Below are positions 11,008-30,390 of a stretch of DNA of 64,000 bases, in pieces. Source of the DNA: a virus; the IMG/VR virus record IMGVR_UViG_3300020045_017904, positions 1 to 64,000 of that record; one strand, given 5' to 3'. A program made the translations under genes and the position numbers. Each line of letters begins with the position of its first letter. Position 1 is the stretch's first letter. The notes beneath the pieces were generated by a model. The model was not told the origin of the DNA, made no database searches, and was given only the letters and a program-made list of their open reading frames with translations.

Positions 11008-11012
11008 AACTT

Positions 11013-11225
11013 TTATTTCTTTAATATAATATTTATTTGATTATCAATCTCTTGTTTATTATTAGGATTACAATATATTCGTAATTGTTTTAATAATCTT
11101 AATTTAGTTTCCCAAGATACATTTTCAATTCCATTATTATTAATAATTTCTTTAATATTATTTTCTATTTTATTTTTATCATTCAAATAATAATCTATAA
11201 TATCTTGTCTTTTTTCTATTATCAT
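11013..11225 (-). CDS. hypothetical early protein
   Basis: first ORF after the host-type promoter. Confidence 0.5.
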   Translation of the reverse strand: MIIEKRQDIIDYYLNDKNKIENNIKEIINNNGIENVSWETKLRLLKQLRIYCNPNNKQEIDNQINIILKK

Positions 11226-11228
11226 AAT

Positions 11229-11262
11229 GCGTAAATATACGACCAGGGATTGCAGAATCCAA
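11229..11262 (-). promoter_or_regulatory. host-type early promoter
   Basis: TTGG-N19-TATATTTA; 23 bp identical to 48828-48850. Confidence 0.7.
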
Positions 11263-11280
11263 CCAAAATATTGCGTTTTT

Positions 11281-11302
11281 ACACGTCTTGAAGCGTATTT
11301 AA
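11281..11302. repeat. 22-bp CG-rich motif, copy 1
   Basis: ACACGTCTTGAAGCGTATTTAA. Confidence 0.7.
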
Positions 11303-11325
11303 TACATTACTTATTTGAATACATA

Positions 11326-12234
11326 TTATTCCATGAATTGGAAATATTTATTTATATTTTGGTTGAAAATAACCCCACCCCAACCAATATCTTTATATAG
11401 ATTTTCAATTTTGTTTTGAAGAGTTGATTCAAATATTTTGTTCCTATCAATATATTTATTTATTAATTCTGAAACTTCTGGAGGGTCATTGTATCCATTT
11501 GAACCAATAACATCTATTCCATAAGGGTTTGGTTTTAGATATGAAAGATACATTTTGTCTCCAGCTTGGAAGGGTGAATATTTTTTATCTACCTTTTTAA
11601 ATCTTATAAAATCATTAAAAACTATAGCTCCTCTTGTATTTATTGGGCATCTTTTTGCTATTTTTGAGAATATTTCACCATTTAATGGTTTAGAAACAAT
11701 ATAATTATTTAAATTTTTTACTCCTGTTGGTTTTATTAATTTTTTCCAATCAACAGTATTTATTGATTTTTTAAATTCTAATATTTCTTTGTCTATTTGG
11801 GATTTTGGGATGTTAAACAATATTTTTTTTATTAAATTCTCCCCAAAATCTTTAAATAATTTAGGGAAGTTTGATTTCATTATATCAAGCCCCATCATTA
11901 TGAATTTTTCAATAGGTTGACCTTCTCTATCAACCAAATATTGTGCATATCTTCTTTTCCCAGACCAATAAGCTGTTTGCACTATAAACTCAGGTTTTAA
12001 ATCAAAACTATGTTCTGTACAATTAAGAATGTCTTTGGAAATTTTTGATTGATAATTATTTAATAATTCTCCAATTTCAGCTTGAATTGGTTTTATCTTT
12101 AGGATAACTTCATCCTTATTATCTAAATCTAAATTTGGATAAATTTTTTTAAGTATAGGTTCTAAACATATAAATGTTGAATCTGTATCAGAACCTTTAA
12201 CATATTTATTTATTTTTTGAATATCAAAATTCAT
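11326..12234 (-). CDS. family B DNA polymerase, C-terminal fragment (motif C, thumb)
   Basis: GSDTDS, KRRYA, MGLDIMKS. Confidence 0.9.
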   Translation of the reverse strand: MNFDIQKINKYVKGSDTDSTFICLEPILKKIYPNLDLDNKDEVILKIKPIQAEIGELLNNYQSKISKDILNCTEHSFDLKPEFIVQTAYWSGKRRYAQYLVDREGQPIEKFIMMGLDIMKSNFPKLFKDFGENLIKKILFNIPKSQIDKEILEFKKSINTVDWKKLIKPTGVKNLNNYIVSKPLNGEIFSKIAKRCPINTRGAIVFNDFIRFKKVDKKYSPFQAGDKMYLSYLKPNPYGIDVIGSNGYNDPPEVSELINKYIDRNKIFESTLQNKIENLYKDIGWGGVIFNQNINKYFQFME

Positions 12235-13194: not shown

Positions 13195-15042
13195 TTAAGA
13201 ATTTATATATTTTTCATCAATCATTTCATTTGCATATTTAATTGTTTCCATCAATAATCTTTGACAAGTTGTGGTTATAGCCGATGAAAACATTTTATGA
13301 CCATCAGTAAACCTAAATCCATTAATACTCATTCCACCATAATATCCATTCAAAAGTATTTTTAAAGCATGTTGTTTTAAATCTAACATATCTCCCTTTT
13401 CTATCTCCCTCTTTTTATAAGCCTCTTCCATTTCCTTTTTAACTTTCTTTCTCCTCTGGAACCAATCGCTTAATACTTCACTAACAATACTTTTAATATC
13501 AGTTCTAAAAATAACCCCATTTGCTGATATTGTAAAATTATTTTCCTCAATTATTTTAATTACTTTACCAATTGTTGTTTTAGTTTTTTTAAGTGTATAT
13601 GTTTGATTGTTTAATCTCTCAATTTCTATTTCTTGATTAGGATTTTTGGTTTTTAAATCACTAAATCCCCACCAACAATTATAATTTGGATTATCAATTA
13701 CTAATCTGCCTATTAATGTTTCAATTCCTAAATTTAAACTCATAATTGAATTAGGATAATATGAGGAATAATCATAATCTGATAACCATTTATATATCCC
13801 TGGAGTTGGTTCAAGGAGAAAACCACCTGCATAACCTTGTTTCTTTTTTAAGGCCATTGGGGGATAATGTTTTAAAACTCCTGCTTTGGTTCTTATTCCT
13901 ATTAAATCTTTTGTTATTGATTCAACCAAACCACTTGAGTTTGTATATCCCCTATTTGTAGTTACTTCTTCTCCAATTGAAAATAATTTTATTAGTGGGT
14001 TTTGAGTGGTGGGCTTATTTATAGAAACAATATTTTTTCTTTTAAGATAAGTTAATGTTGCCCCCTCATTTAAAACTGTGTTCCAAAATATAGATTCATA
14101 AGGAGTATGACATAAATGGGATATTAATATTGTTAATTGAATAAATTTTTGTTTTTCCTCTAAAGCTTCAATAATTTCAACATCTCGAATGTTATAATCA
14201 ATAAATTTATTGATGTCATCTTTAAATAATTGATCTAAATTACCTTCATACTCAATTTTACCTAAATTAACATACTTTTCTCCAATGTCATTTAATTTAT
14301 AAGATTGTTCTTCTTTTGAAATATATTTTTTAATCAAAAACATATAATCAAGACAATTAACCCCTCCAATTTGAATTACGTTATTATCTTGAGCTTCTTT
14401 TACAAGGATTTTTTTAATTGGAGATAATCTATAAACTTCATTCCCTAAAATCTTTTTAATTCTGTAGTAAATATAAGGTATATCAAAATAAGAACAATTA
14501 TAACCTATAACAATAGTTGGGTCTATTTCTTCCCACTTATTCAAGAATTTAATTATTAAATCTTTTTCATCTATACAGGGGATAATGATTTTACCATCTT
14601 TATTTACTTCTTGTAATTTTTTACTCGAATCAACTACAAAACATATTTTTTGTTTCAAAGTTGCATCAATCATTGAGATTGAGGTAAAAGGCATTTTGGA
14701 TTCCCTTATATATTGAGGTGTTAGATCACCCCCAATTTCAATTTCTATATCTAAATAAAGAATATTATGCCATTCAGGAATATCATCATTTTTATAATAT
14801 AAATCTCTTAAAACTATTAATTCTTTAGAAATATCTTTTTCATAGATATTAGGATCCTTGTAATCTATTCTTTGGTTTGGTCTAATGGGAGATACCCTTC
14901 TACCATCTAAAGCATACAAATCCCCGTTTTCATCAGGATAATATTTGGTAGAATGATAAATAAATTCATTCCAGTTCAATTTATCATCCCTTAAAAAATA
15001 TTTTTTTTCTTGATAACAGTAATATAATGCTTGACAAGCCAT
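13195..15042 (-). CDS. family B DNA polymerase, N-terminal fragment (3'-5' exonuclease, motifs A and B)
   Basis: DIEIE, GYNCSYFD, YNIRDV, DYSSYYPN, KILLNGYYG. Confidence 0.92.
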   Translation of the reverse strand: MACQALYYCYQEKKYFLRDDKLNWNEFIYHSTKYYPDENGDLYALDGRRVSPIRPNQRIDYKDPNIYEKDISKELIVLRDLYYKNDDIPEWHNILYLDIEIEIGGDLTPQYIRESKMPFTSISMIDATLKQKICFVVDSSKKLQEVNKDGKIIIPCIDEKDLIIKFLNKWEEIDPTIVIGYNCSYFDIPYIYYRIKKILGNEVYRLSPIKKILVKEAQDNNVIQIGGVNCLDYMFLIKKYISKEEQSYKLNDIGEKYVNLGKIEYEGNLDQLFKDDINKFIDYNIRDVEIIEALEEKQKFIQLTILISHLCHTPYESIFWNTVLNEGATLTYLKRKNIVSINKPTTQNPLIKLFSIGEEVTTNRGYTNSSGLVESITKDLIGIRTKAGVLKHYPPMALKKKQGYAGGFLLEPTPGIYKWLSDYDYSSYYPNSIMSLNLGIETLIGRLVIDNPNYNCWWGFSDLKTKNPNQEIEIERLNNQTYTLKKTKTTIGKVIKIIEENNFTISANGVIFRTDIKSIVSEVLSDWFQRRKKVKKEMEEAYKKREIEKGDMLDLKQHALKILLNGYYGGMSINGFRFTDGHKMFSSAITTTCQRLLMETIKYANEMIDEKYINS

Positions 15043-16417: not shown

Positions 16418-17155
16418 TTATAATTGTTTATATTTCCAAATATATCCATATGCTGTTTTTTGAAGATTCTTACAACAAGCATGAATAGCTGAACCACTTT
16501 TTTTCTTATCTAATGGTTTTAAAAATAAATTTATTACTTCTTCATTATTATTATATTCTTTAATAAAATTACCTTTTAAGTCATATTGGATAATTGGAAA
16601 TACTCTATTTACTTTTAAAATATATTCTTTTGGGAGAAATAATTCTAAATCAAAAGAATCATTATATTTATATCTCCACAAACTTCCATTTATTCTCAAA
16701 AAACTTTCTTTTAAACAAACCCCTTTTACATCATTATAATTAGGAATTTGTAAATAATTATCCCAAACTTTAATAAATTTTCCCAAATAATTATATTCTA
16801 TTATGAGGTAATTATGCTTAATTGAAACCCCTAATTTATTTAAAGACATTTTGTCTTTAGTTTCTTGACTTAAAAACCCTTCTCTTCCATCTATTCTACA
16901 ACACAAACTTGGAATATCTAAAACTTTATAAAATATTTTCCAATGTGTTTCTCTTTCAAGCAAATTATCAACTTCACATTCTTCTATTACCTCAAATTTA
17001 TGGTTTTTAGAACCATATTTTATAAGAGAATTATATAATCTTGGTTGTCTTTTACAATTTAATCTATTATATCTTTTCCACCTATCTTCTATATCTGTTG
17101 ATTGACCTATGTAAATTTTATTTGTTGGGCTTGTTATTTTATAAATTCCTATCAT
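16418..17155 (-). mobile_element. GIY-YIG homing endonuclease with NUMOD1 repeats
   Basis: GIYKIT..IYIGQS; QYDLKGNFIKEY..KTAYGYIWKY. Confidence 0.9.
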
Positions 17156-17199: not shown

Positions 17200-17733
17200 T
17201 TATTGATTGTTTTCCTTCCTATAATAATCACCCTGGAACTGACCATTATATAAATTTTTATCTTCTACAGGCATACATTCATGGAAATATATTTGTGCTA
17301 CTCTTGCATTTTGTTCAATATAAATTGTTTTATTTACAATACAAATAGTTCCAATATTTTCTGTTTTAAAACCAGGATCAAATAATGAAGATTGAATCAT
17401 TGCCCCATTCCTCATTAATGATGATCTTTGTTTAATAAAAGCCATTCTATTGTTTGAAATATTACAACCTTCATTAAATGTAAAATCATAAATCCCAGGT
17501 TCTAATCTCCATGCTTTTTGGTTATTAGGGGACCCAAATTTCCACCCCTCTCTAAATTCTACAATACTGGATTCTCCAATTTCTGTTTTATCAATATGTA
17601 CAGCCCCAATTGAAGCTTTTAATAATTCTTTAACTGATTTGAGGCTAAGATCATAACCCACTTGAGCAGGTTTTCCAAACTCACTTGGTATTACTAATCC
17701 TTCTTCTAATATTTGCGTTGCTGTTAAAATCAT
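17200..17733 (-). CDS. dCTP deaminase / trimeric dUTPase family protein
   Basis: GYDLSL, QRSSLMRNG, FDPGF, RVAQI, YNGQFQ. Confidence 0.85.
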   Translation of the reverse strand: MILTATQILEEGLVIPSEFGKPAQVGYDLSLKSVKELLKASIGAVHIDKTEIGESSIVEFREGWKFGSPNNQKAWRLEPGIYDFTFNEGCNISNNRMAFIKQRSSLMRNGAMIQSSLFDPGFKTENIGTICIVNKTIYIEQNARVAQIYFHECMPVEDKNLYNGQFQGDYYRKENNQ

Positions 17734-18371
17734 AAATTATTACCGTTTTTCATTATAGATTGTAAAAATTCTTCTCTTACCAAATTATCTTTTTCCATAA
17801 AAACACCTGAAAATTTATTTGTTGTCATTACAGATTCTGGATGTTTTATACCTCTTGCTCCACAACACATATGTTTTGAGGAAATTGATACTGCTATTGA
17901 AGAACATTCAAGTTGTTTAGTTAAATATTCGTGAATTTGTTGTGTTAATGATTCTTGCATTTGTGGTCTTCTTGAAAACCAATCAACAACTCTATTTAGT
18001 TTTGATAATCCTATTACTTTGTCTCCTGGAATATAACCTACAGAACACCAACCATAAAATGGTAAATTGTGATGTGCACACATACTATTAACCCTAATTC
18101 CTGTTTGAATTACAATTCCATTATATTTTTCTTCATTAGGAAAAGTGGTTGTTTCAGGTGGTTCTGTAATTGAACCAACTATTAAATCTTTTATCCAACT
18201 TTTAGCTACCCTTTTTGGAGTATCAATTGTTTGGGGATCTGCTTTATAGTCGAACCCAAGTGATTCTAAAAATTGACCATAATAATATTCTGCATTAGCC
18301 CCCATATTTTCAAGATCAATATTAGAGGCTACATGATTTCCATTTGCTTTTTTTAATAATTCCATATACAA
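17730..18371 (-). CDS. folE: GTP cyclohydrolase I
   Basis: TPKRVAK, SMCAHH, GLSKLNR, RPQMQE, HMCC..RG. Confidence 0.95.
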   Translation of the reverse strand: MYMELLKKANGNHVASNIDLENMGANAEYYYGQFLESLGFDYKADPQTIDTPKRVAKSWIKDLIVGSITEPPETTTFPNEEKYNGIVIQTGIRVNSMCAHHNLPFYGWCSVGYIPGDKVIGLSKLNRVVDWFSRRPQMQESLTQQIHEYLTKQLECSSIAVSISSKHMCCGARGIKHPESVMTTNKFSGVFMEKDNLVREEFLQSIMKNGNNL

Positions 18372-18379
18372 ATAATATA

Positions 18380-18898
18380 CTAATCTTCTATTAATTCTCC
18401 CCAGATAAATGGTAAATTTCGTTGAGTTCCATTTTCTGAATCAAGACCAAAACCTAGGATCCAATATTCATTTTTTAATTCTAAACCATATATTAAATTT
18501 GTGAGTAGTTTTGAATATTGTTTTTTAAATAAAGTAACAGGAGTTATAGAGTTGGGGTTGAAATCTTTTAAAGTTTCAATTAAAAACCTCATTGTATTTC
18601 CAGAATCAAAAATATCATCTATTAAAAATACATCTCTACCAGTTATGTTAACTTCAATATTTTTTATTAATTGAATTTCAGCTTGATCTTTATTATTATA
18701 GGATTTTACCCTTATAAAATCAATAACACATTCCCCTTGTTTCTTTACAAGTTCAGAAAAAAACATAAAAGCCCCATTTAAAACACATATAAAAACAGGA
18801 ATAGATTTTTGAGAAGCAATTACCTTATTTACTTCTTTAGATATTTTATTAATTGAAGATTTTAATTCATCTTCTGTAAAAAGTATTTGTTTTGACAT
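18380..18898 (-). CDS. hpt: hypoxanthine/guanine phosphoribosyltransferase
   Basis: VLNGAFMF, SY, LIDDIFDSGNT, GFGLD..RNLP. Confidence 0.9.
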   Translation of the reverse strand: MSKQILFTEDELKSSINKISKEVNKVIASQKSIPVFICVLNGAFMFFSELVKKQGECVIDFIRVKSYNNKDQAEIQLIKNIEVNITGRDVFLIDDIFDSGNTMRFLIETLKDFNPNSITPVTLFKKQYSKLLTNLIYGLELKNEYWILGFGLDSENGTQRNLPFIWGELIED

Positions 18899-18901
18899 TT
18901 A

Positions 18902-19120
18902 TTATCTGTTTTTATATATAGCTTTCCAACTTTCCACTGTTCTTTCAAATTCAGTTAATTTTTCATATCCTTCAAAAGGATAAACCACGTGAGAAATTCT
19001 TTCAGGCAATGGTGGGGGTAAGGGATTATTGATCTTCTTTAACCAATTTGTTAATGATTCTTTTGTTTCTTTACCCAAAGCAACATCTAATTTTCTTTCT
19101 AAAGATCTTAAATTGAACAT
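18902..19120 (-). CDS. hypothetical protein
   Basis: ORF. Confidence 0.4.
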   Translation of the reverse strand: MFNLRSLERKLDVALGKETKESLTNWLKKINNPLPPPLPERISHVVYPFEGYEKLTEFERTVESWKAIYKNR

Positions 19121-19133
19121 AATAAATATTATT

Positions 19134-19511
19134 TTATATAAATAATTGTAAAGTTAAAAACAATTGTACATAATGTAAAACTTGATCAAAAGCAATACTA
19201 CTAAAAGCACCTAAATTGGGAATTTTACTTCCATAATGTTTATTTTCAAATTTCTTTTTCACTATTTTACTTGTAAAAAAATCTGTAGTAGTATGGAATT
19301 TCCAAGTAATTAAAACAAATAAAATTGTATTAAACCAATCCCCCAATAAAAAATATATAGGAATAATCCAACATAAACTATAAACAGTAGTATGTTTTAG
19401 TAAATCCTTTATATTACTTGATTTACCATTTGCCCATTTTTCATCTTGCATAACAAAATCAGCAAACCAATGTACAATAATAAGAGTGAATATTTGGGTT
19501 AAAGTAAACAT
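19134..19511 (-). CDS. DUF3307-like membrane protein
   Basis: HWFADFVMQ, H..VY, H..TD, DQVLH. Confidence 0.75.
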   Translation of the reverse strand: MFTLTQIFTLIIVHWFADFVMQDEKWANGKSSNIKDLLKHTTVYSLCWIIPIYFLLGDWFNTILFVLITWKFHTTTDFFTSKIVKKKFENKHYGSKIPNLGAFSSIAFDQVLHYVQLFLTLQLFI

Positions 19512-19514
19512 TAT

Positions 19515-20369
19515 TTATACATTTAGTGTTTTATCCCAAGCAGCAATATGTAAACGACAACTTCCTATAAATTTATATTTTTTTGCCATTTCTAATACAA
19601 ATCGAGTTCTTTCAAAGAAATCATCTTGATTATCCATCCCAGGCATACAACAAACCTTATGTAATGGTATATTAAAAGGTTCTATATAATCTCTAAATAT
19701 TTCCTTTACATCTTCTTCAGTTGAAATAACAAATTTAAATTGGTAATTGTCATGTTCCATTACCCTTTTTATTGCTTCAGGAACAATTCTTTGTTTTTCA
19801 GTCATACCTGAATTTGCAAGTTTTGGGGAACAATTGATTTGATTTAAACAACTCCATAAATCTTCTCCTATATAGACTGTTCCATTAGTTTCTATTTCTG
19901 AATAGGGATTATATTCATGAAATGAAGTTCCATAATATTCTATATTCCACCATCTTTGGAAGAAATTAAAAATTGATTCTTGATGTTGTTTGATTGTTGG
20001 TTCTCCACCAGTCCAAATTATATGAATAGTACCATTTTTTATACCTTCATAAACACCTTCTTCTTTCCACTGATCTAACAACCATTGGAATGTTTGATTT
20101 TCACCCCTTATAGCCCATTGGCTTGTACTATCACAAGTCCAACTTGCTTCACCTGATTCTTCTAAATCCCCTTTAAATAATTCTCCATCTGCTAAATTTT
20201 CAGTACCAAGTTTTCTTAAATTATTTAAGAATTTCATAGACATGCCACATTGTAAATTACATTGTGATAATCTTACAAAATAAGATGGAGTTCCTATTGA
20301 TTTACCTTCCCCTTGTACACTGTAAAAATTACTTGATATTAAAAGATGTTCTGGTGAAAATTTACTCAT
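19515..20369 (-). CDS. queE: 7-carboxy-7-deazaguanine synthase (radical SAM)
   Basis: FYSVQGEG, VRL..CNLQC, TGGEP, IETNGT, CSPKL, KFV, RLH. Confidence 0.92.
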   Translation of the reverse strand: MSKFSPEHLLISSNFYSVQGEGKSIGTPSYFVRLSQCNLQCGMSMKFLNNLRKLGTENLADGELFKGDLEESGEASWTCDSTSQWAIRGENQTFQWLLDQWKEEGVYEGIKNGTIHIIWTGGEPTIKQHQESIFNFFQRWWNIEYYGTSFHEYNPYSEIETNGTVYIGEDLWSCLNQINCSPKLANSGMTEKQRIVPEAIKRVMEHDNYQFKFVISTEEDVKEIFRDYIEPFNIPLHKVCCMPGMDNQDDFFERTRFVLEMAKKYKFIGSCRLHIAAWDKTLNV

Positions 20370-20377
20370 TTTTTTAA

Positions 20378-20782
20378 TTATATTGTGTGTTCTATTCTTA
20401 CTCTAACACAAGTTTGAGGAAGTGAATTAATATGTCTGTAATTATTAATATAACCCATAATATTAGCACTTCCAATAGCATTTGCTGAATGTGTGTATAC
20501 TGGAAAAATTGGTTTTCCATCCAACCATTGTTCTACTAACCATTTAGCACAATCATAACCTGTTTTTTCTGTTATATTATTATAATCTAATTTGTAATTA
20601 TGATAAACATTTGAGTGCCATTCTTTCATGGCTGAATCTCCTAAATCATGATCTAAAGATATACAATCGATATTCTCAAAACCTAATTCATTTACTTTAT
20701 TTATAAATTGATTATAATCCCTTACTACAATCCAATCTGAATCGATTGGGGTTCTTACATCATCTAAATATATTTTATACAT
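20378..20782 (-). CDS. cyclic-phosphate-processing receiver-domain protein
   Basis: IYLDDVRTP, ISLDHDLG, TGYDCAKWL, HSAN. Confidence 0.8.
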   Translation of the reverse strand: MYKIYLDDVRTPIDSDWIVVRDYNQFINKVNELGFENIDCISLDHDLGDSAMKEWHSNVYHNYKLDYNNITEKTGYDCAKWLVEQWLDGKPIFPVYTHSANAIGSANIMGYINNYRHINSLPQTCVRVRIEHTI

Positions 20783-20790
20783 AATTTTAT

Positions 20791-20825
20791 ACCATAAATA
20801 TACAACAAATATTTGTGGTGTCCAC
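20791..20825 (-). promoter_or_regulatory. host-type promoter
   Basis: GTGG-N19-TATATTTA. Confidence 0.5.
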
Positions 20826-21065
20826 CTAAACTTCCTTTATTAAGTTTAAAATTTTATCTTGTAATTCTTTAATTTCTATTTCAGTACAATCAGAATTATA
20901 ACATTCAAATTTTATATTTTCTCCTGTGTGATGATCTCTTGTAAATAAGATATAATAATCATCTTTCATCATCTCAGTAGTAGATTTTAAATTTGATTCA
21001 ATAATTTCTGTAGGTGTATGAAAAGGGTATCTAACTACAAAAATTGGTTTAATTTGTTTTTTCAT
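20826..21065 (-). CDS. hypothetical protein
   Basis: ORF. Confidence 0.45.
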   Translation of the reverse strand: MKKQIKPIFVVRYPFHTPTEIIESNLKSTTEMMKDDYYILFTRDHHTGENIKFECYNSDCTEIEIKELQDKILNLIKEV

Positions 21066-21247
21066 TGTTTTGATTGTTTTAAATATTCCCCAACAATTTC
21101 AACTAAATCATTATTAGTTATGGGGATTCTTCCTTCTTCCAATTGATATTTTACCCTTTCCAAATAACGTAACCAATGCAAATTGTTTTTAGTAAGAATT
21201 GTGTCTTTTATCTGATTTAGTAAAACAATATCAACTTTATTCTTCAT
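21062..21247 (-). CDS. hypothetical protein
   Basis: ORF, ATGA coupling. Confidence 0.4.
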   Translation of the reverse strand: MKNKVDIVLLNQIKDTILTKNNLHWLRYLERVKYQLEEGRIPITNNDLVEIVGEYLKQSKQ

Positions 21248-21504
21248 TTTGTATATTTTAAAGTATCTCCAATATTATATAATCCTTTTTTGGCTACAAA
21301 TCTTGGGTATTCTTTATTGAAACTTAAATTATCTATTTGATCTTCATTTGTAGTATAAATACAAGTAGAATCTCCATATTTTTCTACTTTAGTTATTATA
21401 TCTCCGTCAATAGTAGCCCAATTACTACAGCTAAACAAAAACATAACCATTAAAATTAATAAAATTTTATTCTTCATATATTCCTGAATTTTTCTTATTT
21501 TCAT
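21244..21504 (-). CDS. putative lipoprotein (likely start MKNKILL)
   Basis: KNK-ILLILMVMFLFS-C lipobox. Confidence 0.55.
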   Translation of the reverse strand: MKIRKIQEYMKNKILLILMVMFLFSCSNWATIDGDIITKVEKYGDSTCIYTTNEDQIDNLSFNKEYPRFVAKKGLYNIGDTLKYTK

Positions 21505-21931
21505 TACATTCTACTTTAATAACCTTTATTCTTCCTCCCTCATTTTTTGAAAACCAATCATTAAATTTATCAAAAACTAATTTTGCAGCACTTTCAGCAC
21601 CAATTCTATCCATAAAAATTGGTTTAGCCAAACCCATAGTTCCTAACTGTTCAAAAATATCTTTATATGGATCATCTTTTTCAATTAATAAAGTATGATC
21701 AAACATTGAATCTAACCAATCTTTAAGTCCATTTCTCCCAAACAAACCAAAATCAACAATCCAATTCATTTCATCAAGTTGATTTTCTTCAACTTCTTCA
21801 ATAGAAGCAAACCAAACCTTAAACTCAAAAGCATACCCATGTAATAATTGACAATGAGAATGTTGTGCTTTGTGTTGTCTTATAGCAACAGAAAAATTAT
21901 CGAATATTTTAGTTGAACTAAACCTCCCCAT
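21467..21931 (-). CDS. queD: 6-carboxy-tetrahydropterin synthase
   Basis: HCQLLHGY, WIVDFG, FDHTLL, GAE..A, E..KNS. Confidence 0.92.
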   Translation of the reverse strand: MGRFSSTKIFDNFSVAIRQHKAQHSHCQLLHGYAFEFKVWFASIEEVEENQLDEMNWIVDFGLFGRNGLKDWLDSMFDHTLLIEKDDPYKDIFEQLGTMGLAKPIFMDRIGAESAAKLVFDKFNDWFSKNEGGRIKVIKVECNENKKNSGIYEE

Positions 21932-22169
21932 TCAAAAATTTTACTAATTGTTCTTGAGAATTGTATCCTACCATTCTTCTTTTTTCTTCCCCATCTTCCA
22001 AAAATATTACTGTAGGAATATGAGTTATATTCCATTGTTTTGCATCTGATGGAGAGTATTCAAGATTAATTTTATCAATTTTGATTTGATTTCTAAATTG
22101 ATCTAATATGGGTTCTAATTTTTCACAGTTAGAGCACCATTTTTCATGGAAAAATAATAGTTTTTGCAT
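21918..22169 (-). CDS. thioredoxin-like protein
   Basis: WCSNC, IPTVIF..G.E..R.VG. Confidence 0.85.
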   Translation of the reverse strand: MQKLLFFHEKWCSNCEKLEPILDQFRNQIKIDKINLEYSPSDAKQWNITHIPTVIFLEDGEEKRRMVGYNSQEQLVKFLNGEV

Positions 22170-22229
22170 TGTTTTTAAATAATAGTTTTTATTTTTGTGG
22201 GTATTATATGTAATTTATTTGGTTTGTAT

Positions 22230-22251
22230 TTAAATACGCGTTAAGACGTGT
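22230..22251. repeat. 22-bp CG-rich motif, inverted copy
   Basis: reverse complement is ACACGTCTTAACGCGTATTTAA. Confidence 0.7.
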
Positions 22252-22261
22252 TAAAATTGAT

Positions 22262-23191
22262 TTAATTTGTTGGGGTTGGGGAAAATGTTACTGTGGGAGA
22301 GTAATTTTCCAAAACATTTATTACATGAGATTTTGCAACTTCCCAGTCTACGGGTCCTTCCTCTATATTTGCATATTTCGCAGGATCAGGTCTTCCTAAT
22401 TTAATAAAAGCTTCTATTCTTTCAACACTTGAAGCACTCTTATAGTCTGAATACCAAGAACCATAATATGGATTATAAGAACTTAACATTTTCACTTCTT
22501 GTTCTGTTTCTTTGGATTGGATAAATATTGGTTTATATGAAGTCATAGTTCTTGAATAAACTTCATCAAAATCTAAACCTAATTGTTTACAACATATTTC
22601 ACCATCTTGTAAAATTCCAAATTTATCTATTTTAAGATAGGGAGTATAATAAGTTACTGAATCACCATCTTCATTTCCTTCTAAAAAGGCATTATAATCT
22701 GCATCTCTAAATTCTTGGCGACAATCTTTGTAAATAAAATGGTCGCCAGCATGCAAACCGAGTGCTATTTGGCATGGAGAATCTGTTCTTTGTGAAATAG
22801 ATAAAGCAACTGCTTGAATAATACTGGAGAATATTTTATTACGATTAGGAACAACAGTATCTTTCATATTTTCCTGCTCATAATGTCCTTCAGGAACATC
22901 TTCACCTCCCTCTACTAATGATGAATTAAGTAAGGAACCTAATCCATTTAAATGAATAATCTGGTGGGATACAGGAATAAAATTATTATAAATTCCACTT
23001 CCATCAGCTGTTTGAACATGTTTTGAGTTTATATACTCAACTAATTCTTTTGCTTTTTCTAATTCAACCTTATGTTTTTGACCATAATCGAATGAAAGGC
23101 ATTGAACTTTATAACCTTTACTTAATAAGTGAAGAAGTAAGGAACTTGAATCCATTCCTCCACTCAATGAAAGCACACAATATTTTTCCAT
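22262..23191 (-). CDS. queC: 7-cyano-7-deazaguanine synthase (QueC) lacking the Zn-binding cysteines
   Basis: LSGGMDS, FDYGQKH..E, VPNRN, Y.DCR, ER.EAF. Confidence 0.9.
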   Translation of the reverse strand: MEKYCVLSLSGGMDSSSLLLHLLSKGYKVQCLSFDYGQKHKVELEKAKELVEYINSKHVQTADGSGIYNNFIPVSHQIIHLNGLGSLLNSSLVEGGEDVPEGHYEQENMKDTVVPNRNKIFSSIIQAVALSISQRTDSPCQIALGLHAGDHFIYKDCRQEFRDADYNAFLEGNEDGDSVTYYTPYLKIDKFGILQDGEICCKQLGLDFDEVYSRTMTSYKPIFIQSKETEQEVKMLSSYNPYYGSWYSDYKSASSVERIEAFIKLGRPDPAKYANIEEGPVDWEVAKSHVINVLENYSPTVTFSPTPTN

Positions 23192-23194
23192 ATT

Positions 23195-23776
23195 TTAATG
23201 ACTTATATAAATTCTATTAATTGATTTACCTATTTGGATAATATAATATCCTTCAGGCCATAACTCAACATTTATTGATTTATTCCATGTGTTCCCTTTA
23301 AATACAATTTTTCCTAAGTAATTATAAATTAAAACATCGGTTACAGCTCCTTTCCATTCAAATTCAATAATATTAGAATCAAATGGGTTTGGATAAATTA
23401 ATACTTTTTCAACTTCAACATTATTTGTATTTGCAGTTTTGGAACACTCAACCTTTAATTTTAAATACATAGAAGTATCACATTTTGTACATCTATTTTT
23501 AAATGTAGATTTAATAGTATAATAACCTGTGTCTTTAAAAGTAGTTTTGAATATTCTATCATCTGATAGAGTATCAATTTTGAATGTTTTCATGTTTTTT
23601 CTTATTGTAAAATAAGAGACACAAGTGTCTTTCCATCCTAATTCAAATGTGTATTCGTTACATTTGTTTGAATAATAAATTCCTTGTTTTGACCAATCAC
23701 ATTTTTGTGGTGTAGTTTGAGCTATTGAGCTAAAAGAAAACGCGATTAATGCAATAATTGTAATTAATTTTTTCAT
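23195..23776 (-). CDS. signal-peptide protein with a PKD-like segment and a T9SS type-A C-terminal sorting domain
   Basis: MKKLITIIALIAFSFSSIA-Q; IYPNP..IYNYLGK..INVELWPEGYYIIQI. Confidence 0.8.
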   Translation of the reverse strand: MKKLITIIALIAFSFSSIAQTTPQKCDWSKQGIYYSNKCNEYTFELGWKDTCVSYFTIRKNMKTFKIDTLSDDRIFKTTFKDTGYYTIKSTFKNRCTKCDTSMYLKLKVECSKTANTNNVEVEKVLIYPNPFDSNIIEFEWKGAVTDVLIYNYLGKIVFKGNTWNKSINVELWPEGYYIIQIGKSINRIYISH

Positions 23777-24297
23777 ATGTTATTTTTTCTATATATTAAA
23801 AGTCCTTGATAAAAATCTTCATCCACATTAATGGTTTTAAAATCCCAATTACCTCCTGGTAGTTTATTTATGTTTTTTATAAAAATAATTTTGTAAAGTT
23901 TAGATTTTTGGGGATCTGTTTTAGTTAAAAATGTATCTTTATTTTTATTAGAAGCAAAAAGAGTAATATTATTAATTTTTGGATTATTATTTATCCAATC
24001 AATTGATATATCAAAAACAGTTTTTAAAATTTTTATTAAATATTCATAATTAGTTTTTTGATATTGTGTTTCAACACCTTCTAAAAAATATGATATATTA
24101 TAAGCAGGATAACTAATATTTAATTCTTTACAATCATTTTCATCAAATGGAGTAAAAGTAACTATTACTCCTAATTTATCCTCAGTTTTAAAGGAATATT
24201 TATTTGATGAATTTTTAATAAAATTATAAGAATTTATATTATTTAAATCCCCCACTTCTTTTACTAATTTTTTATATTCTAATACTAATGATATCAT
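23773..24297 (-). CDS. hypothetical protein
   Basis: ORF. Confidence 0.5.
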   Translation of the reverse strand: MISLVLEYKKLVKEVGDLNNINSYNFIKNSSNKYSFKTEDKLGVIVTFTPFDENDCKELNISYPAYNISYFLEGVETQYQKTNYEYLIKILKTVFDISIDWINNNPKINNITLFASNKNKDTFLTKTDPQKSKLYKIIFIKNINKLPGGNWDFKTINVDEDFYQGLLIYRKNNI

Positions 24298-24342
24298 ATA
24301 TTGTAATATAATATTGTTTATTTAATTTTCCAAATTTATTTA

Positions 24343-24519
24343 TTATTTAATATCAACCCATTCCCAACCTAATAAAAATTTTACAAAAAATCTATTAAAT
24401 TTTGATGGTTTAGTATAAAATCCTATTTGAGTCCCACTATCCCCAATTACATAACCTCCAATTTTTTTCTTTGGTTTTTTAAATTCAGCTTTATATTGAT
24501 TTGTATTTACTGGACTCAT
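24343..24519 (-). CDS. 58-aa hypothetical protein (not in ORF track)
   Basis: MSPVNT...KPSKFNRFFVKFLLGWEWVDIK; ATGA overlap with the upstream gene. Confidence 0.5.
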   Translation of the reverse strand: MSPVNTNQYKAEFKKPKKKIGGYVIGDSGTQIGFYTKPSKFNRFFVKFLLGWEWVDIK

Positions 24520-25316
24520 AGTTTGTTTGTTTTTTTAAACATTTTTACATTATGTTTTGCTAATGATATTTCAAATTCAGTTATTTTATCTTTTCCCCAA
24601 AATTGAGTTGTATTTAAATTTAAAATTGGTTTAGATTCAAAATAATTAGAATTATTATAGTTCTTACCTTCTAAAGCAGCCATTATAGGTGCACTTGTAT
24701 CAATTGATTCAATAAATTTAAAATCTTTATAAAATTGAAATTCTGACCATATTGATGACCCCAAAAGATGAACTTTATCACTATTATTTAATAATTTCAT
24801 TTTATGTAATTTTGAAATTACTAATAACCTCCCCATTGCTTTTCCAAAATCTTGATTTGGGTGTGGGAATAAATCATTATAATATGAAGCTCCATAACTA
24901 AATGCTAGTTTTTTATAACCTAAATCTTTATAAATTTGAGTACATTCAATAGCATCTCCTAATGATTTACCTTGTATAACAGCTATTTTTTGTACTCCTT
25001 TTGGTAATTTTATTTTAGACCATTTTTTAGCATTTACAATTGAAGCATCTTTATCTTCCCAAACATCAGGTATAAAGAAATTGGAAGGTCTTAATTCTTC
25101 AATCCAATGTATTAATCTTTCAAAATTATAAGCAACCTTAAGTTCATGTAAAGAATTATCTAAATAAATTTCTCTACCCAATTCTTTTTCTTCCAGAAAG
25201 AAATCTCTATATTCATCACTTTGGTCCATTAGGTGGGGTAAGCAATATGAATACTGATTGTAATTTCTACTTTCTCTTAAAAGTAATACTGGGGTTTCGT
25301 GACTAATTTTAATCAT
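24516..25316 (-). CDS. TGT-fold DpdA-like 7-deazaguanine DNA transglycosylase
   Basis: YLDNS..E, IPDV, AVIQG, VHLLG, SIDTS in TGT order; near queC/D/E/folE. Confidence 0.7.
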   Translation of the reverse strand: MIKISHETPVLLLRESRNYNQYSYCLPHLMDQSDEYRDFFLEEKELGREIYLDNSLHELKVAYNFERLIHWIEELRPSNFFIPDVWEDKDASIVNAKKWSKIKLPKGVQKIAVIQGKSLGDAIECTQIYKDLGYKKLAFSYGASYYNDLFPHPNQDFGKAMGRLLVISKLHKMKLLNNSDKVHLLGSSIWSEFQFYKDFKFIESIDTSAPIMAALEGKNYNNSNYFESKPILNLNTTQFWGKDKITEFEISLAKHNVKMFKKTNKL

Positions 25317-25319
25317 TCT

Positions 25320-25844
25320 TTAAAAATTTTCAAATATTGCGTTTATTAATTTATTTTGGGTTAATAACCATTTTCTATATTGATTATAAATTTCCATTAT
25401 TGTTCCTTGAGCATAATTTTCAATAAAATCATTAACTTGATCTTCTGTTCCTTTATGGAATCTTCTCAAATTTTTCTTTAAATATTCTAATCGATTGAAT
25501 TCATCTTTTTCAAAATCTAAAGATAATTTATTTATACGTCCAATATAAGATTTTTTTATTTCATTTTCAAGTTCATTTTGATTATCTTTTTGATTTTTTC
25601 TTAATTTAATAATTTCATCAACCATCCATTGATATTCATATTGAATTTGAGCTGCATAAGGAGAATAATCAAAATCCCCATTATTAAATTTTTCTTCAAA
25701 TGATTTATGTTTAGATAATGGTTTGTGGGTTTCAAATCTTCTCCACCAATAAAATTTATTAAAAATTTTTGTTGGGGGTTTGGTAGGGGCTTCAAATGTA
25801 ATAAAATTACAACCTAGTTCCCTTAATAATTTTTCTTTGTTCAA
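25320..25844 (-). CDS. hypothetical protein
   Basis: ORF; FYWWRRF..NGDFDYSPY. Confidence 0.55.
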   Translation of the reverse strand: MNKEKLLRELGCNFITFEAPTKPPTKIFNKFYWWRRFETHKPLSKHKSFEEKFNNGDFDYSPYAAQIQYEYQWMVDEIIKLRKNQKDNQNELENEIKKSYIGRINKLSLDFEKDEFNRLEYLKKNLRRFHKGTEDQVNDFIENYAQGTIMEIYNQYRKWLLTQNKLINAIFENF

Positions 25845-26948: not shown

Positions 26949-27506
26949 TTAGTCGTTTGACTTTAATAACCATAAACTCCAAACCATAACACAAAAACTA
27001 TGAAATATTTCAGCAATCGCAAATCCTTTAAATAATAATAAAAACAATAATGGAAAAAATATAGTTGAAATTGAAAACACTAAATGCATCAACCATTCTT
27101 TATATTGTATATATTTTCTATTTAAAAATGATAATAAAAATACCATTAATGGAAATATAAAAAAATAAAGTGAAGCTGTTATATCATGTATTAAAAAACC
27201 CATAGGATAAAATCCTGTTAGGAACAAACATAAAAATATTAAAGAAAAGCCCAAACTTAAAAATAATTTAAATTTTAATCTTTTGTGTTTTAAAATATAA
27301 AATAATGTATTTATAGATAATGAAACAGATAATAATTCTAAAACATGATTCCAATAAGAAGAAGTTATTGGGTTTGTACTAAAATAAGATAAAGGTATAT
27401 CAAAAATACTAAATTCAGTTACATACCATGAAAATAAAAAAACACATATAAATAATATTATTGATATGATGGTTTGGATCTTTCTAATATAAAATATTTT
27501 ATCCAT
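26949..27506 (-). CDS. multi-pass membrane protein (DUF998-like)
   Basis: about 6 TM segments; PLSYF, H..TA.LYF, AE. Confidence 0.55.
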   Translation of the reverse strand: MDKIFYIRKIQTIISIILFICVFLFSWYVTEFSIFDIPLSYFSTNPITSSYWNHVLELLSVSLSINTLFYILKHKRLKFKLFLSLGFSLIFLCLFLTGFYPMGFLIHDITASLYFFIFPLMVFLLSFLNRKYIQYKEWLMHLVFSISTIFFPLLFLLLFKGFAIAEIFHSFCVMVWSLWLLKSND

Positions 27507-27525: not shown

Positions 27526-28524
27526 TTAATATGTTTTTATTTCACCTTCTAATTCTTGTTGTTGTTTTTTATTTCTCCAAGCTGATAAATTAGGATCATA
27601 TTTATATTCAAATGGAGTTTTTATAATTCCATCACCTTCATCTATTTTTTCTTCATTAATATTTTCTGGGGTTACTTCTGGGAGTGGGGTTCCTATAACT
27701 TCTTCCTGAATTAATATATCTTCAGGTTTTTTTTGAATTTGATTAAAAGCAAAACTAGCAGATATTATTAATACAATGGCTAATGGATCAAAAACAAAAA
27801 TTATTGCTAATAATAACCAATTTATAACCACATCCATAGGTTGGTGTGTAAGGTTACTTAAATATTTTAAAGGACCTAACTCATTAGATTTAGTATTTTT
27901 TGATTCTATTTCAAATTTCTTATTTGTTAAATCCAAAATAATAGAATCTTGGGATGATAATTGTTTTTTTATTTGTTTCTCGTCTTTTAATGCTAAATCA
28001 AGTTGTTTTTCATATGATTTTCTATTGCCACTCGAACTTGTTGTTAATATATTTCCTTTTTTATCTTTTGTTGTTTGGATATTATTTCCTAAATTTTCTC
28101 TTAATTTTGAAATACTTTGTTGAATTTCAAATAATTGTTTTGTATTTAATTTTTGAGAAGTTTCATTTAATTTTTGTTGTTTATCTATTAAACTTAATTC
28201 TTGTTCAATAATAATTGATTTATTTGAAATTGTTTGATAACCCGAACTTAATAATCCATAAACCCCAGCAGAAGTTATTACCATTAAAATAAATAAAGCT
28301 GAAATTAAATATGTTTTTAAATATATAGAAATTGATTTCCAATATCTATGTAATAAAGTTGCTATTGTTATTTTGCTTAATTCTAAAAATGAAGCCATAA
28401 TAATAACAGGGATACGAGTTGCAGCAAATAATAAAGATAACCCCGTTATGCTATAAAAAGCTGCTGTAGAACTTAGGCCTAAGGCACAAAATAAAATAAG
28501 GAATGGTAAAAAATATTTTTTCAT
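27526..28524 (-). CDS. membrane-anchored coiled-coil protein
   Basis: AAFYSITGL..ELSK..TSAGVYGLLS, coiled coil, GPLKY..IIFVFDPLA. Confidence 0.65.
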   Translation of the reverse strand: MKKYFLPFLILFCALGLSSTAAFYSITGLSLLFAATRIPVIIMASFLELSKITIATLLHRYWKSISIYLKTYLISALFILMVITSAGVYGLLSSGYQTISNKSIIIEQELSLIDKQQKLNETSQKLNTKQLFEIQQSISKLRENLGNNIQTTKDKKGNILTTSSSGNRKSYEKQLDLALKDEKQIKKQLSSQDSIILDLTNKKFEIESKNTKSNELGPLKYLSNLTHQPMDVVINWLLLAIIFVFDPLAIVLIISASFAFNQIQKKPEDILIQEEVIGTPLPEVTPENINEEKIDEGDGIIKTPFEYKYDPNLSAWRNKKQQQELEGEIKTY

Positions 28525-28536
28525 AACTAAAAATTT

Positions 28537-30390
28537 TTATGGAATTTCACAACTTCCTCCACCACAACTTACTTCTCCTTGTAGATTTGTAAGATCTGTT
28601 ATTTCAATAACTTTTGTTAAATCAATTTCGTGTAAAAAATTTATCATTTTATTATATGTTTCTTCATTACATGTTTGGAATGGGGCTTGAGAATATGAAT
28701 GGTCATTAAATGGAAGGACTGATAACCCATTATAAAACTTTTTATTATTCCACATCCACTCTCCTACCTTATCCCATTCATTTTCTTTTATAGATATAGT
28801 TGCACTTACATTATTTGTATTATCTCCTTTTCTATGTCCTTTTTTAACCCATTCTATATTAAATTTTTTTATTCTTTCTAATAATTCTAAAGATGTTACT
28901 TCATTTCTTAAAAATGCACCTTTTGGGGCCTCTTGTGGAATTGAAAATATAGCTTGTAAAGAAGGTTTTTCAAAATCATCTTCTAATAATTCTGGAAGAT
29001 GGATTGATAGATAAGTATATAATGGTTCATTTTTTAAAATTCTAATAGTTCTAATGTAAAATTTATCATACCAATCATGAATCCCACTTGATGTTCCTAA
29101 TACTAATGAAGAAGTACCTGATGGTTTTATTGTTGTACATCTTGCTGCTTTATTAATATTTATTATTTTAGCAATTCTTTCATTTTCTTCTTTAACTATA
29201 TATGCAGCTTCTACCAGATTGAATTTAATTATTTCACCTGAAGCTATTCCCGTCATCCCAATTCCTATTAGGGCTTCCTTTTCAACTGTTTTTTTCCATA
29301 TATCTCTTAAGTAATGGAAATTAGTATAAGATGCTTGTAATGTTCCTATAAATGATGCTGATTTTACTCTATTATTTAAATCTTTTTGTGATTCAATATC
29401 ACAAACGTTTATTTCACAAAGATTACACATTTGATAAGGTCTCAATGAAATTTCAGCACAAGGATTAACTCCCCATTCTTTATCATTTGAAAAATAAATT
29501 CCAGGTTCTCCACTATTTGATGTTTCAACCTTCTTCCATAAATCTAAAAATTCATCTTTTTTAATTTTATGACGGAGAATCATTGCTGAATTATTTGCTC
29601 TTCCTCTTTGTGGATTTAATTCCCACCATGCCCCAAATTTACAGGTTAACATTTCCTCATCCCCTAAATCAAATAGAGATATTAAAGCTGCCCTCCTTAT
29701 ACCACCAGATAATACTGCATCTGCTTCATGACATATTATATCATGACATTCTAAAGAAGTTAATTTTTCTCCGTTTTGTTTTCTATCTAATATTTTTTGG
29801 ATATGAAATAAACATTCTTTTAATGGTTCTGGACCTGGGGCTAAACCTCCTGCTGTTTTTAATGGGGTTCCCTTTGGTCTTATATCTCTATAATCAAAAT
29901 TTGGCCTTGCCCCACCAACTAAGTAAGATTTTATTAAAAATTTAATAGCATCTGCCCATCCTTCAATATTATCACTAATTAAATATCGTTTTGTTTTTGT
30001 AGGCAGTTTAATTTCTGGAAGTTTATCAATATTATGATATTGAACACTATATCCAACCCCACAACCACTTAATAACAAAAACATTATTTCAGAAAAACAT
30101 CTATAATTATCAATTGGACAGAAACAACAATTATAAAGCCTTGCATTATTTATCCCAACAGGTTTTCCAGCAAATTGTAAACTACGCATTGATGGTAATA
30201 TTTTTTTATCATATACCATTTTATAATTTTCCTCAATTTCATCTTTCAATAGAGGAAATTTTTCAATATGCATTATTTTATTTCTTGTTACTATTTCATT
30301 CCATGTTTCTCTGCGTTGTTGTTCGGGTAGGTATTTAGAGTATTTCTGATGTATTATTATGTCTGATAGAATTTGTTGGGATATATTCAT
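28537..30390 (-). CDS. nrdJ: class II (B12-dependent) ribonucleotide reductase
   Basis: LPSMRSLQ, YNCC, GGIRRAA, NPCAE, CNLCE, TIKPSGT, C-terminal CGGGSCE. Confidence 0.92.
   Translation of the reverse strand: MNISQQILSDIIIHQKYSKYLPEQQRRETWNEIVTRNKIMHIEKFPLLKDEIEENYKMVYDKKILPSMRSLQFAGKPVGINNARLYNCCFCPIDNYRCFSEIMFLLLSGCGVGYSVQYHNIDKLPEIKLPTKTKRYLISDNIEGWADAIKFLIKSYLVGGARPNFDYRDIRPKGTPLKTAGGLAPGPEPLKECLFHIQKILDRKQNGEKLTSLECHDIICHEADAVLSGGIRRAALISLFDLGDEEMLTCKFGAWWELNPQRGRANNSAMILRHKIKKDEFLDLWKKVETSNSGEPGIYFSNDKEWGVNPCAEISLRPYQMCNLCEINVCDIESQKDLNNRVKSASFIGTLQASYTNFHYLRDIWKKTVEKEALIGIGMTGIASGEIIKFNLVEAAYIVKEENERIAKIININKAARCTTIKPSGTSSLVLGTSSGIHDWYDKFYIRTIRILKNEPLYTYLSIHLPELLEDDFEKPSLQAIFSIPQEAPKGAFLRNEVTSLELLERIKKFNIEWVKKGHRKGDNTNNVSATISIKENEWDKVGEWMWNNKKFYNGLSVLPFNDHSYSQAPFQTCNEETYNKMINFLHEIDLTKVIEITDLTNLQGEVSCGGGSCEIP

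Follow-up and report, generated by a model that had tools for sequence, protein, structure and literature searches.

What does a purine phosphoribosyltransferase (PRT) do inside an operon that builds a modified base for DNA? The question is raised by positions 1 to 64,000 of the IMG/VR virus record IMGVR_UViG_3300020045_017904 (the window, in what follows, is this whole stretch of 64,000 nucleotides), in which a gene for a hypoxanthine-guanine phosphoribosyltransferase (HPRT) stands directly upstream of folE, amid genes for the synthesis of the 7-deazaguanine base preQ0 and for a predicted DNA transglycosylase of the DpdA3 subfamily. An earlier note on this DNA had put first the idea that HPRT phosphoribosylates the deazabase, and had offered as an alternative that it salvages the guanine which the transglycosylase releases. 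Our analysis leans against the former and gives better support to the latter: with modest confidence, we favour the reading that HPRT takes up the guanine which DpdA3 expels and feeds it back into the GTP that FolE uses.

The DpdA3 pathway is itself already published. What is new is a non-homologous, full-length Hpt-type occupant of the slot upstream of FolE, and the repeated swapping of PRTs in that slot; neither type of purine PRT is mentioned as a recurrent member of the pathway in the literature that we searched, including the defining study (PMC10516641). To that extent, the suspicion in the earlier note that HPRT lies outside the published dpd gene set was correct.

A 7-deazaguanine module with an HPRT beside FolE

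We identify the cluster as a 7-deazaguanine DNA-hypermodification module of the DpdA3 type, carried by a T4-like uncultivated phage. Family searches recovered everything that had been recognised from the letters, namely folE, queE, queD, queC and a divergent gene resembling those of guanine transglycosylases (TGT) and DpdA, all on the minus strand, as are all the genes between 13 and 31 kb of the window. The genes that bear most directly on the question are, in order of transcription:

24516..25316, minus strand, predicted DpdA3-subfamily guanine transglycosylase (tblastn, AlphaFold2 and Foldseek)
22262..23191, minus strand, QueC (PF06508, 7.7e-33; TIGR00364, 3.4e-31)
21467..21931, minus strand, QueD, 6-carboxytetrahydropterin synthase (PF01242, 2.5e-12)
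19515..20369, minus strand, QueE-like radical SAM 7-carboxy-7-deazaguanine synthase (phrog_2076, 1.7e-41; NCBIfam QueE models sub-threshold; no Pfam match)
18380..18898, minus strand, Hpt-type HGPRT of 172 residues, the HPRT in question (PF00156, 3e-20; TIGR01203, 3.2e-32)
17730..18371, minus strand, FolE, GTP cyclohydrolase I (PF01227, 1.4e-51; NF006826, 166 bits, above cut-off)

The spacing of 8 bp between hpt and folE that had been reported holds when it is measured from the HPRT stop codon to the first possible FolE start, a TTG, and becomes 14 nucleotides (nt) when measured to the first ATG. The source contig is 93.6 kb long, with an estimated completeness of 57% and about 25% G+C, and HPRT is the only PRT on it. 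A megablast search of the 8-kb region against deposited phages gave no match.

The preQ0 pathway is complete: FolE scores above its NCBIfam cut-off and QueC and QueD above their Pfam cut-offs, and QueE was recognised only by phrog_2076 and by NCBIfam models below their thresholds. The QueC protein shares 60% identity with its counterpart in the phage immuto; with 309 residues it is longer than cellular QueC, and it aligns with solved QueC structures over the first ~190 residues only. As the immuto pathway proceeds through QueF to preQ1 derivatives, this QueC subfamily probably reaches preQ0 and does not stall at the amide. The absence of QueF noted for the window extends to the whole 93.6-kb contig, in which the sole match is a sub-threshold T-fold hit inside FolE, so the product should be preQ0 or its amide, ADG. 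The DNA base predicted here from gene content is accordingly dPreQ0, possibly dADG. Homologues of DpdN, MazG and ThyA were likewise absent from the whole contig, and the ArcS and Gat families had no match among the scanned open reading frames (ORFs), among which no dedicated search for either was made. The QueD motif reads CxxxHGY, where the textbook form is CxxxHGH; because the variant recurs in the QueD proteins of immuto and phiST and in 178 related loci, it is the mark of a subfamily and not a defect.

The transglycosylase

Judged by its sequence relatives, the transglycosylase is a predicted member of DpdA3, the name that Cui et al. (2023) gave to the set formed by the immuto, CP220 and phiST enzymes (PMC10516641). 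In tblastn comparisons it is 34% identical to immuto DpdA, 33% to CP220 gp056 and 23% to phiST CGPG_00065 (E of 9e-40, 2e-28 and 2e-8, respectively), and all of its matches in deposited phage records (23 of 23) fall in Flavobacterium, Campylobacter (CP220-like) or Cellulophaga (phiST-like) phages. Curated models barely detect it: NF041059 (DpdA) reaches 17.6 bits where its cut-off is 200, DUF6610 reaches 26.8 where it is 27, and PF01702 does not match. Such sub-threshold scores are expected, as the subfamily was discovered by HHpred (PMC10516641).

A search of the DpdA3 sequence profile against the PDB found nothing significant (the DpdA structure 7ui4 appeared at E 0.99), and a fold search was therefore used. 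The AlphaFold2 model, built on 14 homologues, has a pLDDT of 94.1, and among the 50 Foldseek matches listed all are TGT or ArcTGT enzymes, with E down to 1.6e-8, probability 1.00 and TMq of 0.58-0.65. In the model, DpdA3 is a minimal TGT-fold TIM barrel of 266 residues without the Zn subdomain; most members are acidic (isoelectric point, pI, of 5-6.4). Residues D53, D84, Q115 and D206 are invariant across 14 DpdA3 sequences, and their motifs may correspond to those of D102, D156, Q203 and D280 in TGT, a tentative mapping at the level of motifs.

In three related loci (L059, L060 and L092, at ~5415-6233) the DpdA3 match contains one in-frame stop; the gene may be broken or split there, or the sequence may be in error.

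The cultured relatives explain why the module is of interest. All G is replaced in their DNA (100%), by fdPreQ1 in immuto, dADG in CP220-like and dDG in phiST-like phages (PMC10516641). No viruses other than DpdA3 phages are known to replace every G by a 7-deazaguanine, and two routes to completeness have been put forward: one group proposed that modified dGTP is made, and a later paper took the discovery of a DpdA3 gene as an argument for exchange after replication.

The slot upstream of FolE

The association of HPRT with this pathway is close. At least 116 relatives of the HPRT exist in IMG/VR, and the 80 loci that we fetched all lie in a que/DpdA3 module (80/80). They share the order RTPR (a ribonucleotide reductase), p332 and p174a (two proteins without a family match), DpdA3, QueC, thioredoxin (Trx), QueD, QueE, HPRT, FolE, a dUTPase-like protein and the family B DNA polymerase (PolB), a recurrence which indicates that the arrangement is not due to chance. 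Of 88 HPRT-FolE pairs, 69 have HPRT upstream of FolE at a distance of at most 400 nt.

Every HPRT-bearing record of sufficient size to allow a judgement also carries DpdA3. Records without it close to HPRT carry it elsewhere, and we found no HPRT phage without any DpdA, a case that would have spoken for a route independent of DpdA, the only records without DpdA3 being fragments that are 10-13% complete. Nor did we find any relative that keeps HPRT without que genes; one distant PolB relative that has no que genes (L108) has no HPRT either. The earlier note had named the co-occurrence and synteny of hpt with que and dpdA as its first check, and both are seen across these loci.

The slot does not always hold HPRT, however. 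Among relatives collected through PolB, some have an unrelated small ORF there, and one has a PRT of 134 residues that is 38% identical to immuto gp211, which itself lies directly upstream of FolE. Relatives of this short GpT/Gpt-type PRT number at least 227, and it adjoins FolE within a que/DpdA3 module in 77 of the 80 loci fetched. Its PDB matches are 1vdm and GpT-1/GpT-2 (4trb, 4z1o), followed by E. coli Gpt, and NF006613 also matches; unlike the HPRT of the window, it falls in the GpT-2 (4Z1O) family. The two proteins belong to the same class, that of the 6-oxopurine PRTs, they occupy the same slot in the same kind of module, and they are interchangeable on the DpdA3 tree. They are nevertheless different families: only the motif for phosphoribosyl pyrophosphate (PRPP) of the short protein aligns with the Hpt type, and the short protein is a 'loop-less' PRT of ~130 residues that lacks the long flexible loop and may stand on either side of FolE. 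In-frame fusions of a PRT with FolE were looked for in three sets of loci, and none was seen.

The least biased count comes from a sample centred on DpdA3 (at least 567 relatives, 80 kept). Where the segment from QueE to FolE is visible (n = 49), 28 modules hold the Hpt type, 11 the short type and 10 neither, so that ~80% of inspectable DpdA3 modules carry one of the two PRTs. When the PRT state is mapped on a tree of DpdA3 from 118 modules, at least 18 changes are needed. No PF00156 gene was found in the CP220 genome or in the phiST cluster, and among ~50,700 deposited phage records HPRT has 15 weak matches, none in a recognisable que context. Of the comparative arguments that tie the function of the PRT to the deazaguanine pathway, this repeated non-homologous swapping in one slot is the strongest. 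For the field, a PRT beside FolE in about four-fifths of inspectable DpdA3 modules provides a concrete handle.

The HPRT and its active site

The closest PDB matches of the HPRT are bacterial HGPRT/Hpt enzymes (3acb, 1.6e-22), and the archaeal GpT-2 structure 4z1o matches at only 1.7e-7 (34 bits). We compared 65 unique phage homologues with the 80 nearest bacterial Hpt proteins. The PRPP motif of the HPRT runs D94 D95 I96 F97 D98 S99 G100 N101 T102, in which D94, D95, I96, D98, G100 and T102 are invariant across the 65 phage sequences and position 99 is S or T. D98 corresponds to the residue whose side chain reads N7 of the purine in characterised HGPRTs (D107 in E. coli, D137 in the human enzyme), and it is invariant in the 80 bacterial proteins as well. 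The Lys that recognises the 6-oxo group, K125, is kept in 63 of the 65 and position 126 is K or R; W or F serves as the stacking aromatic at 146; and S66 and Y67 of loop II, the GYGLD motif (G149-D153), R160 and N161 are invariant or nearly so. From this canonical catalytic set, we infer that the protein is a genuine hypoxanthine-guanine phosphoribosyltransferase.

In a quick tree that includes the 80 bacterial proteins, the HPRTs of phages form a single clade (support 97). Their identity to cellular Hpt is 31-44%, the nearest being mostly from Bacteroidota, Ignavibacteria and Deinococcus. Besides the changes around the purine pocket that are weighed below, the phage clade shows E to D at position 94 and a one-residue insertion after GLD.

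The nearest cellular hpt genes were not found in que clusters, apart from short QueE-like matches in four loci. In these (L158, L169, L180 and L186, from Rikenellaceae, Alistipes and Tidjanibacter), a short QueE-like match, to the radical SAM N-terminus, comes no more than ~100 nt after hpt, so that cellular hpt and queE may be adjacent in four loci of Rikenellaceae type.

Guanine recycling as the favoured reading

In the cycle that we favour, FolE, QueD, QueE and QueC make the deazabase from GTP, as their homology shows, and DpdA3 would exchange guanine for it, probably at every G if the cultured relatives are a guide. HPRT, with PRPP, would then turn the expelled guanine into GMP, and host kinases would convert this to GTP, on which the neighbouring FolE acts; a purine ring cut from DNA would thereby be rebuilt into its own replacement base. 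The PRT would be a useful accessory and not an essential step, and relatives with an empty slot would presumably rely on host salvage.

One guanine is released per modified site, and a genome of ~165 kb at 26% G+C contains ~43,000 G, so that 50 genomes in a 1-fL cell would yield millimolar guanine, which far exceeds the solubility of this base. At TGT-type enzymes guanine competes with the deazabase, is used about as well and is inserted reversibly (PMC8136771). As guanine both competes and is poorly soluble, keeping its level low would help to bring replacement to completion. Recycling, if it occurs, would explain how DpdA3 phages both afford and complete a genome-wide base swap.

Three further lines point to guanine as the substrate. 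First, the PRT is frequent but dispensable, being absent for instance from the fully modified CP220, and DpdA3 was found in every case that allowed a look; this makes the PRT an unlikely maker of the sole route into DNA. Second, the swapping of two unrelated 6-oxopurine PRT families is explained most simply if both keep the substrate that they share by ancestry, guanine. Third, the Asp that reads N7 is kept, and 7-substituted 7-deazaguanines (queuine and NPPDAG) are not substrates of human HPRT, do not bind to it and do not inhibit it, N7 having been called a critical recognition element for that enzyme (PMC5389723; PMC8136771); together these argue for a guanine substrate.

Several observations weigh against recycling, and our confidence is limited by them. 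Hosts normally own an Hpt. HPRT scores 111.6 bits against TIGR01203, below the NCBIfam cut-off of 150, and for this score and its place in a divergent clade we file it as Hpt-type and not as an equivalog. The phage clade has a one-residue insertion before the stacking aromatic, where F has become W, and has lost the Pro that follows the O6-contacting Lys, the position of that Lys itself being K or R; such changes near the purine pocket make an altered base specificity possible. In ~10 contigs, one of them a complete genome of 166 kb, the dUTPase-like gene directly follows HPRT while FolE and DpdA3 lie ~30 kb away, so the link between HPRT and FolE is not absolute. The HPRT-bearing phages are one lineage, and their synteny is therefore partly inherited and not independently selected. 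Furthermore, the activities of this HPRT and of every DpdA3 are predicted ones, and trials of DpdA3 activity in E. coli failed (PMC10516641). Finally, a purine PRT within a cluster of FolE, QueD and QueE can be specific for a 7-deazaguanine, as TubE is (PMC6112128).

Alternative routes into DNA

TubE leads to the alternatives in which replacement precedes replication. Whether G is replaced through a pool of 7-deaza-dGTP, supplied jointly by the PRT, a pyrophosphatase, an AAA_28 kinase and RTPR, with the PRT either using the deazabase or recycling guanine while DpdA3 acts on dGMP, is a question that we answer with a tentative no, regarding such a route as rather unlikely.

The specific scheme that the earlier note had placed first, in which the PRT would join PRPP to preQ0, ADG or 7-carboxy-7-deazaguanine (CDG), kinases and RTPR would convert the product to 7-deaza-dGTP and PolB would incorporate it, is in our view improbable. 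The dUTPase-like or MazG-like pyrophosphatase would here help to clear dGTP, and DpdA3 would only mop up residual G. Acceptance of deazaguanine by the PRT, if real, would make the modification pre-replicative. The scheme has a precedent in TubE, a PRT that joins CDG to PRPP and belongs to a FolE/QueD/QueE cluster (PMC6112128), yet the authors of that study aligned TubE with GpT-2 (4Z1O), which the HPRT of the window matches at only 1.7e-7 as against 1e-22 for Hpt. It would account for the 100% replacement in cultured DpdA3 phages, which is typical of such schemes, and it agrees with the proposal of modified dGTP for Campylobacter phages and with the report of the ADG nucleoside in infected cells. 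The module moreover holds RTPR, thioredoxin and a nucleoside triphosphate (NTP) pyrophosphatase, an AAA_28 kinase adjoins DpdA3 in many relatives, the activity of DpdA3 has never been demonstrated (PMC10516641), and the phage clade has changes near the purine pocket. Against this stand the invariant Asp that contacts N7 in an otherwise canonical Hpt site, and the rejection of 7-substituted 7-deazaguanines by human HPRT (PMC5389723; PMC8136771). The pattern of occurrence is also unfavourable, in that ~20% of modules, and also CP220 with its fully modified DNA, have no PRT whereas DpdA3 is present wherever this could be tested, and two unrelated PRT families would both need the same new specificity.

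That HPRT instead serves as a generic auxiliary to purine salvage and merely raises the supply of purine nucleotides during infection, its proximity to FolE reflecting the clustering of nucleotide-metabolism genes at the replication module, strikes us as quite improbable. The active site is canonical and the surrounding block (RTPR, thioredoxin, dUTPase, PolB, helicase and gp32) is of the expected kind; the AAA_28 kinase that adjoins DpdA3 also occurs in Streptomyces phages, one of which, on inspection, had no que genes in the vicinity. Generic salvage is contradicted, however, by the near-exclusive association of the PRTs with que modules: HPRT is almost absent from the deposited phage records, both families occur essentially only beside FolE in que/DpdA3 modules, and their repeated replacement in one slot points to a function tied to the pathway.

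Least probable, and in our judgement very unlikely, is an exchange of bases at the nucleotide level, with DpdA3 acting on dGMP or dGTP and not on DNA, the pyrophosphatase making dGMP, the kinase re-phosphorylating the product and the PRT recycling guanine, since no TGT-fold enzyme is known that uses nucleotides in free form, some relatives have a canonical trimeric dUTPase where the pyrophosphatase stands, which makes an ordinary dUTPase role simpler, and the kinase is neither specific to DpdA3 phages nor found in phiST. The points in its favour are a DpdA3 barrel of ~260 residues without Zn or nucleic-acid-binding subdomain, acidic in most members; an NTP pyrophosphatase nearly always beside FolE; an AAA_28 kinase close to DpdA3 not only in CP220 but also in modules of the immuto type and in contigs G001, G003 and G007; a likeness to the logic of T4, which combines a dNTPase, modification at the monophosphate level and a dNMP kinase; and the full replacement in cultured phages together with the failure of heterologous DNA-modification tests (PMC10516641).

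Comparison with known systems

With guanine recycling retained as the favoured reading, the module can be set beside the systems that it most resembles. It shares with the cultured DpdA3 phages a homologous DpdA3, FolE, QueD and QueE, low G+C and an NTP pyrophosphatase in the cluster (PMC10516641), and with immuto in particular the similar QueC and a purine PRT (gp211) directly upstream of FolE. It differs from immuto in the PRT, which is a short GpT/Gpt-type protein there and a full-length bacterial Hpt-type protein here. It also has no QueF, DpdN or DpdL, with preQ0 or ADG as the predicted base, and embeds RTPR and thioredoxin in the module; furthermore, this phage is known from a metagenomic contig alone.

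The HPRT has the fold family, length, PRPP motif and catalytic Asp of bacterial Hpt enzymes (3acb from Thermus, 3o7m from Bacillus anthracis and 1g9s from E. coli), together with their loop II Ser-Tyr, O6-contacting Lys, aromatic stack, and GYGLD and RNLP motifs. It is set apart by its separate clade, its 31-44% identity, its score below the model cut-off and its clade-specific changes, and by its place in a DNA-modification operon and not in a setting of cellular salvage.

TubE and the proposed ToyH, of the tubercidin and toyocamycin pathways, are likewise purine-type PRTs beside homologues of FolE, QueD and QueE, and TubE is the only PRT proven to act on a 7-deazaguanine base, as a 7-carboxy-7-deazaguanine:PRPP enzyme (PMC6112128). 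The contrast between TubE, aligned by its authors with GpT-2 (4Z1O), and the Hpt-type protein of the window is a comparison at the level of families. The window cluster contains none of the GMP-reductase, UbiD and Nudix tailoring genes, and the product of the TubE pathway is a secondary metabolite and not DNA.

Whole-base replacement before replication is exemplified by T4, with gp56, gp42 and gp1, and by Z-genome phages, with MazZ, PurZ and DatZ. As in those schemes, complete replacement is expected here, and the modification genes are accompanied by those for a dNTP pyrophosphatase, a P-loop nucleotide kinase and a reductase. Those phages, however, use dedicated monophosphate-modifying enzymes and no transglycosylase, whereas here a TGT-fold exchange enzyme is universal.

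Other genes of the module

The remaining genes of the block are, again in order of transcription:

28537..30390, minus strand, RTPR-type class II ribonucleotide reductase (TIGR02505, 7.4e-76, 255.8 bits against a cut-off of 340; weak Pfam ribonucleotide reductase matches)
27526..28524, minus strand, p332, membrane and coiled-coil protein without a family match
26949..27506, minus strand, DUF998 protein
25320..25844, minus strand, p174a, basic helical protein of 174 residues (pI 8.95) without a family match
23773..24297, variable 174-residue ORF between DpdA3 and QueC
23195..23776, minus strand, secreted protein with a type IX secretion system (T9SS) C-terminal sorting domain (PF18962, 4.5e-8)
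21918..22169, minus strand, thioredoxin (TIGR01068, 1e-16; phrog_22)
20378..20782, minus strand, cREC_REC-domain protein (PF20274, 4.3e-22)
19134..19511, minus strand, DUF3307 membrane protein (PF11750, 4e-10; phrog_2470)
17200..17733, minus strand, DCD-family dUTPase-like protein (NF002598 dUTPase, 6.7e-27, versus dCTP deaminase, 2.5e-10)
16418..17155, minus strand, GIY-YIG endonuclease
13195..15042, minus strand, N-terminal part of PolB (PF00136 and PF03104)

RTPR forms the upstream edge of the conserved module and has an equivalent position in 29 related loci; the NrdJ-like gene of the earlier note is indeed present, but is better described as a reductase of this triphosphate type. PolB, at the downstream edge, is kept in 62 loci and thioredoxin in 60, the latter likely as the reductant of the ribonucleotide reductase. 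The protein p332, with N-terminal and central hydrophobic segments, lies between RTPR and DpdA3 in 40 loci. Directly upstream of DpdA3 in 34 loci is p174a, which could be a partner of the transglycosylase. The T9SS protein is a variable insert between DpdA3 and QueC, found in only 2 related loci; its sorting domain points to a Bacteroidota host, which is probably the host of this phage.

Neighbouring nucleotide enzymes

The DCD-like gene is coupled to folE, as had been noted, the FolE stop and the DCD-like start overlapping in ATGA. The only PDB match of its product is 9w59, a 'probable dUTPase'. Across relatives, the gene that stands between FolE and the polymerase encodes one of three unrelated nucleotide pyrophosphatase folds, MazG/PRA-PH-like, canonical trimeric dUTPase or DCD-like, which amounts to a further non-homologous replacement in situ. 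Genes at this position include:

17200-17733 of the window
9520-9978 of locus L101
9493-9993 of locus L104
11282-11806 of locus L002
7573-8160 of locus L093

A role of the DCD-like protein in excluding dGTP is unsupported: its best matches are dUTPases, and relatives carry a canonical dUTPase or a MazG-like protein instead. Given these matches and the interchangeable occupants, the coupling to FolE looks like ordinary operon packing in a phage of 75% A+T. The two 174-residue ORFs (25320-25844 and 23773-24297) were considered as the MazG-like hydrolase or the kinase of immuto, and neither matched.

A P-loop kinase of the AAA_28 (NadR) type, annotated as 'thymidylate kinase', adjoins DpdA3 in CP220, lies within immuto-type modules (order DpdA3-DpdN-kinase-QueF, 24 loci) and stands 0.6-1.8 kb from DpdA3 in contigs G001, G003 and G007. 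It was not found in phiST. As a DpdA3-specific partner it was rejected, for it occurs in 89 Streptomyces phage records, in one of which, on inspection, no que genes were nearby. Its positions in this phage and in two other loci are:

80364-80885 of the contig, minus strand, ~55 kb away from DpdA3
10813-11355 of locus L003
13481-14005 of locus L002

Finally, the cREC_REC and DUF3307 genes, which interrupt the que genes here, are variable and absent from other HPRT loci, and cREC-like matches occur elsewhere in 7 of the short-PRT loci.

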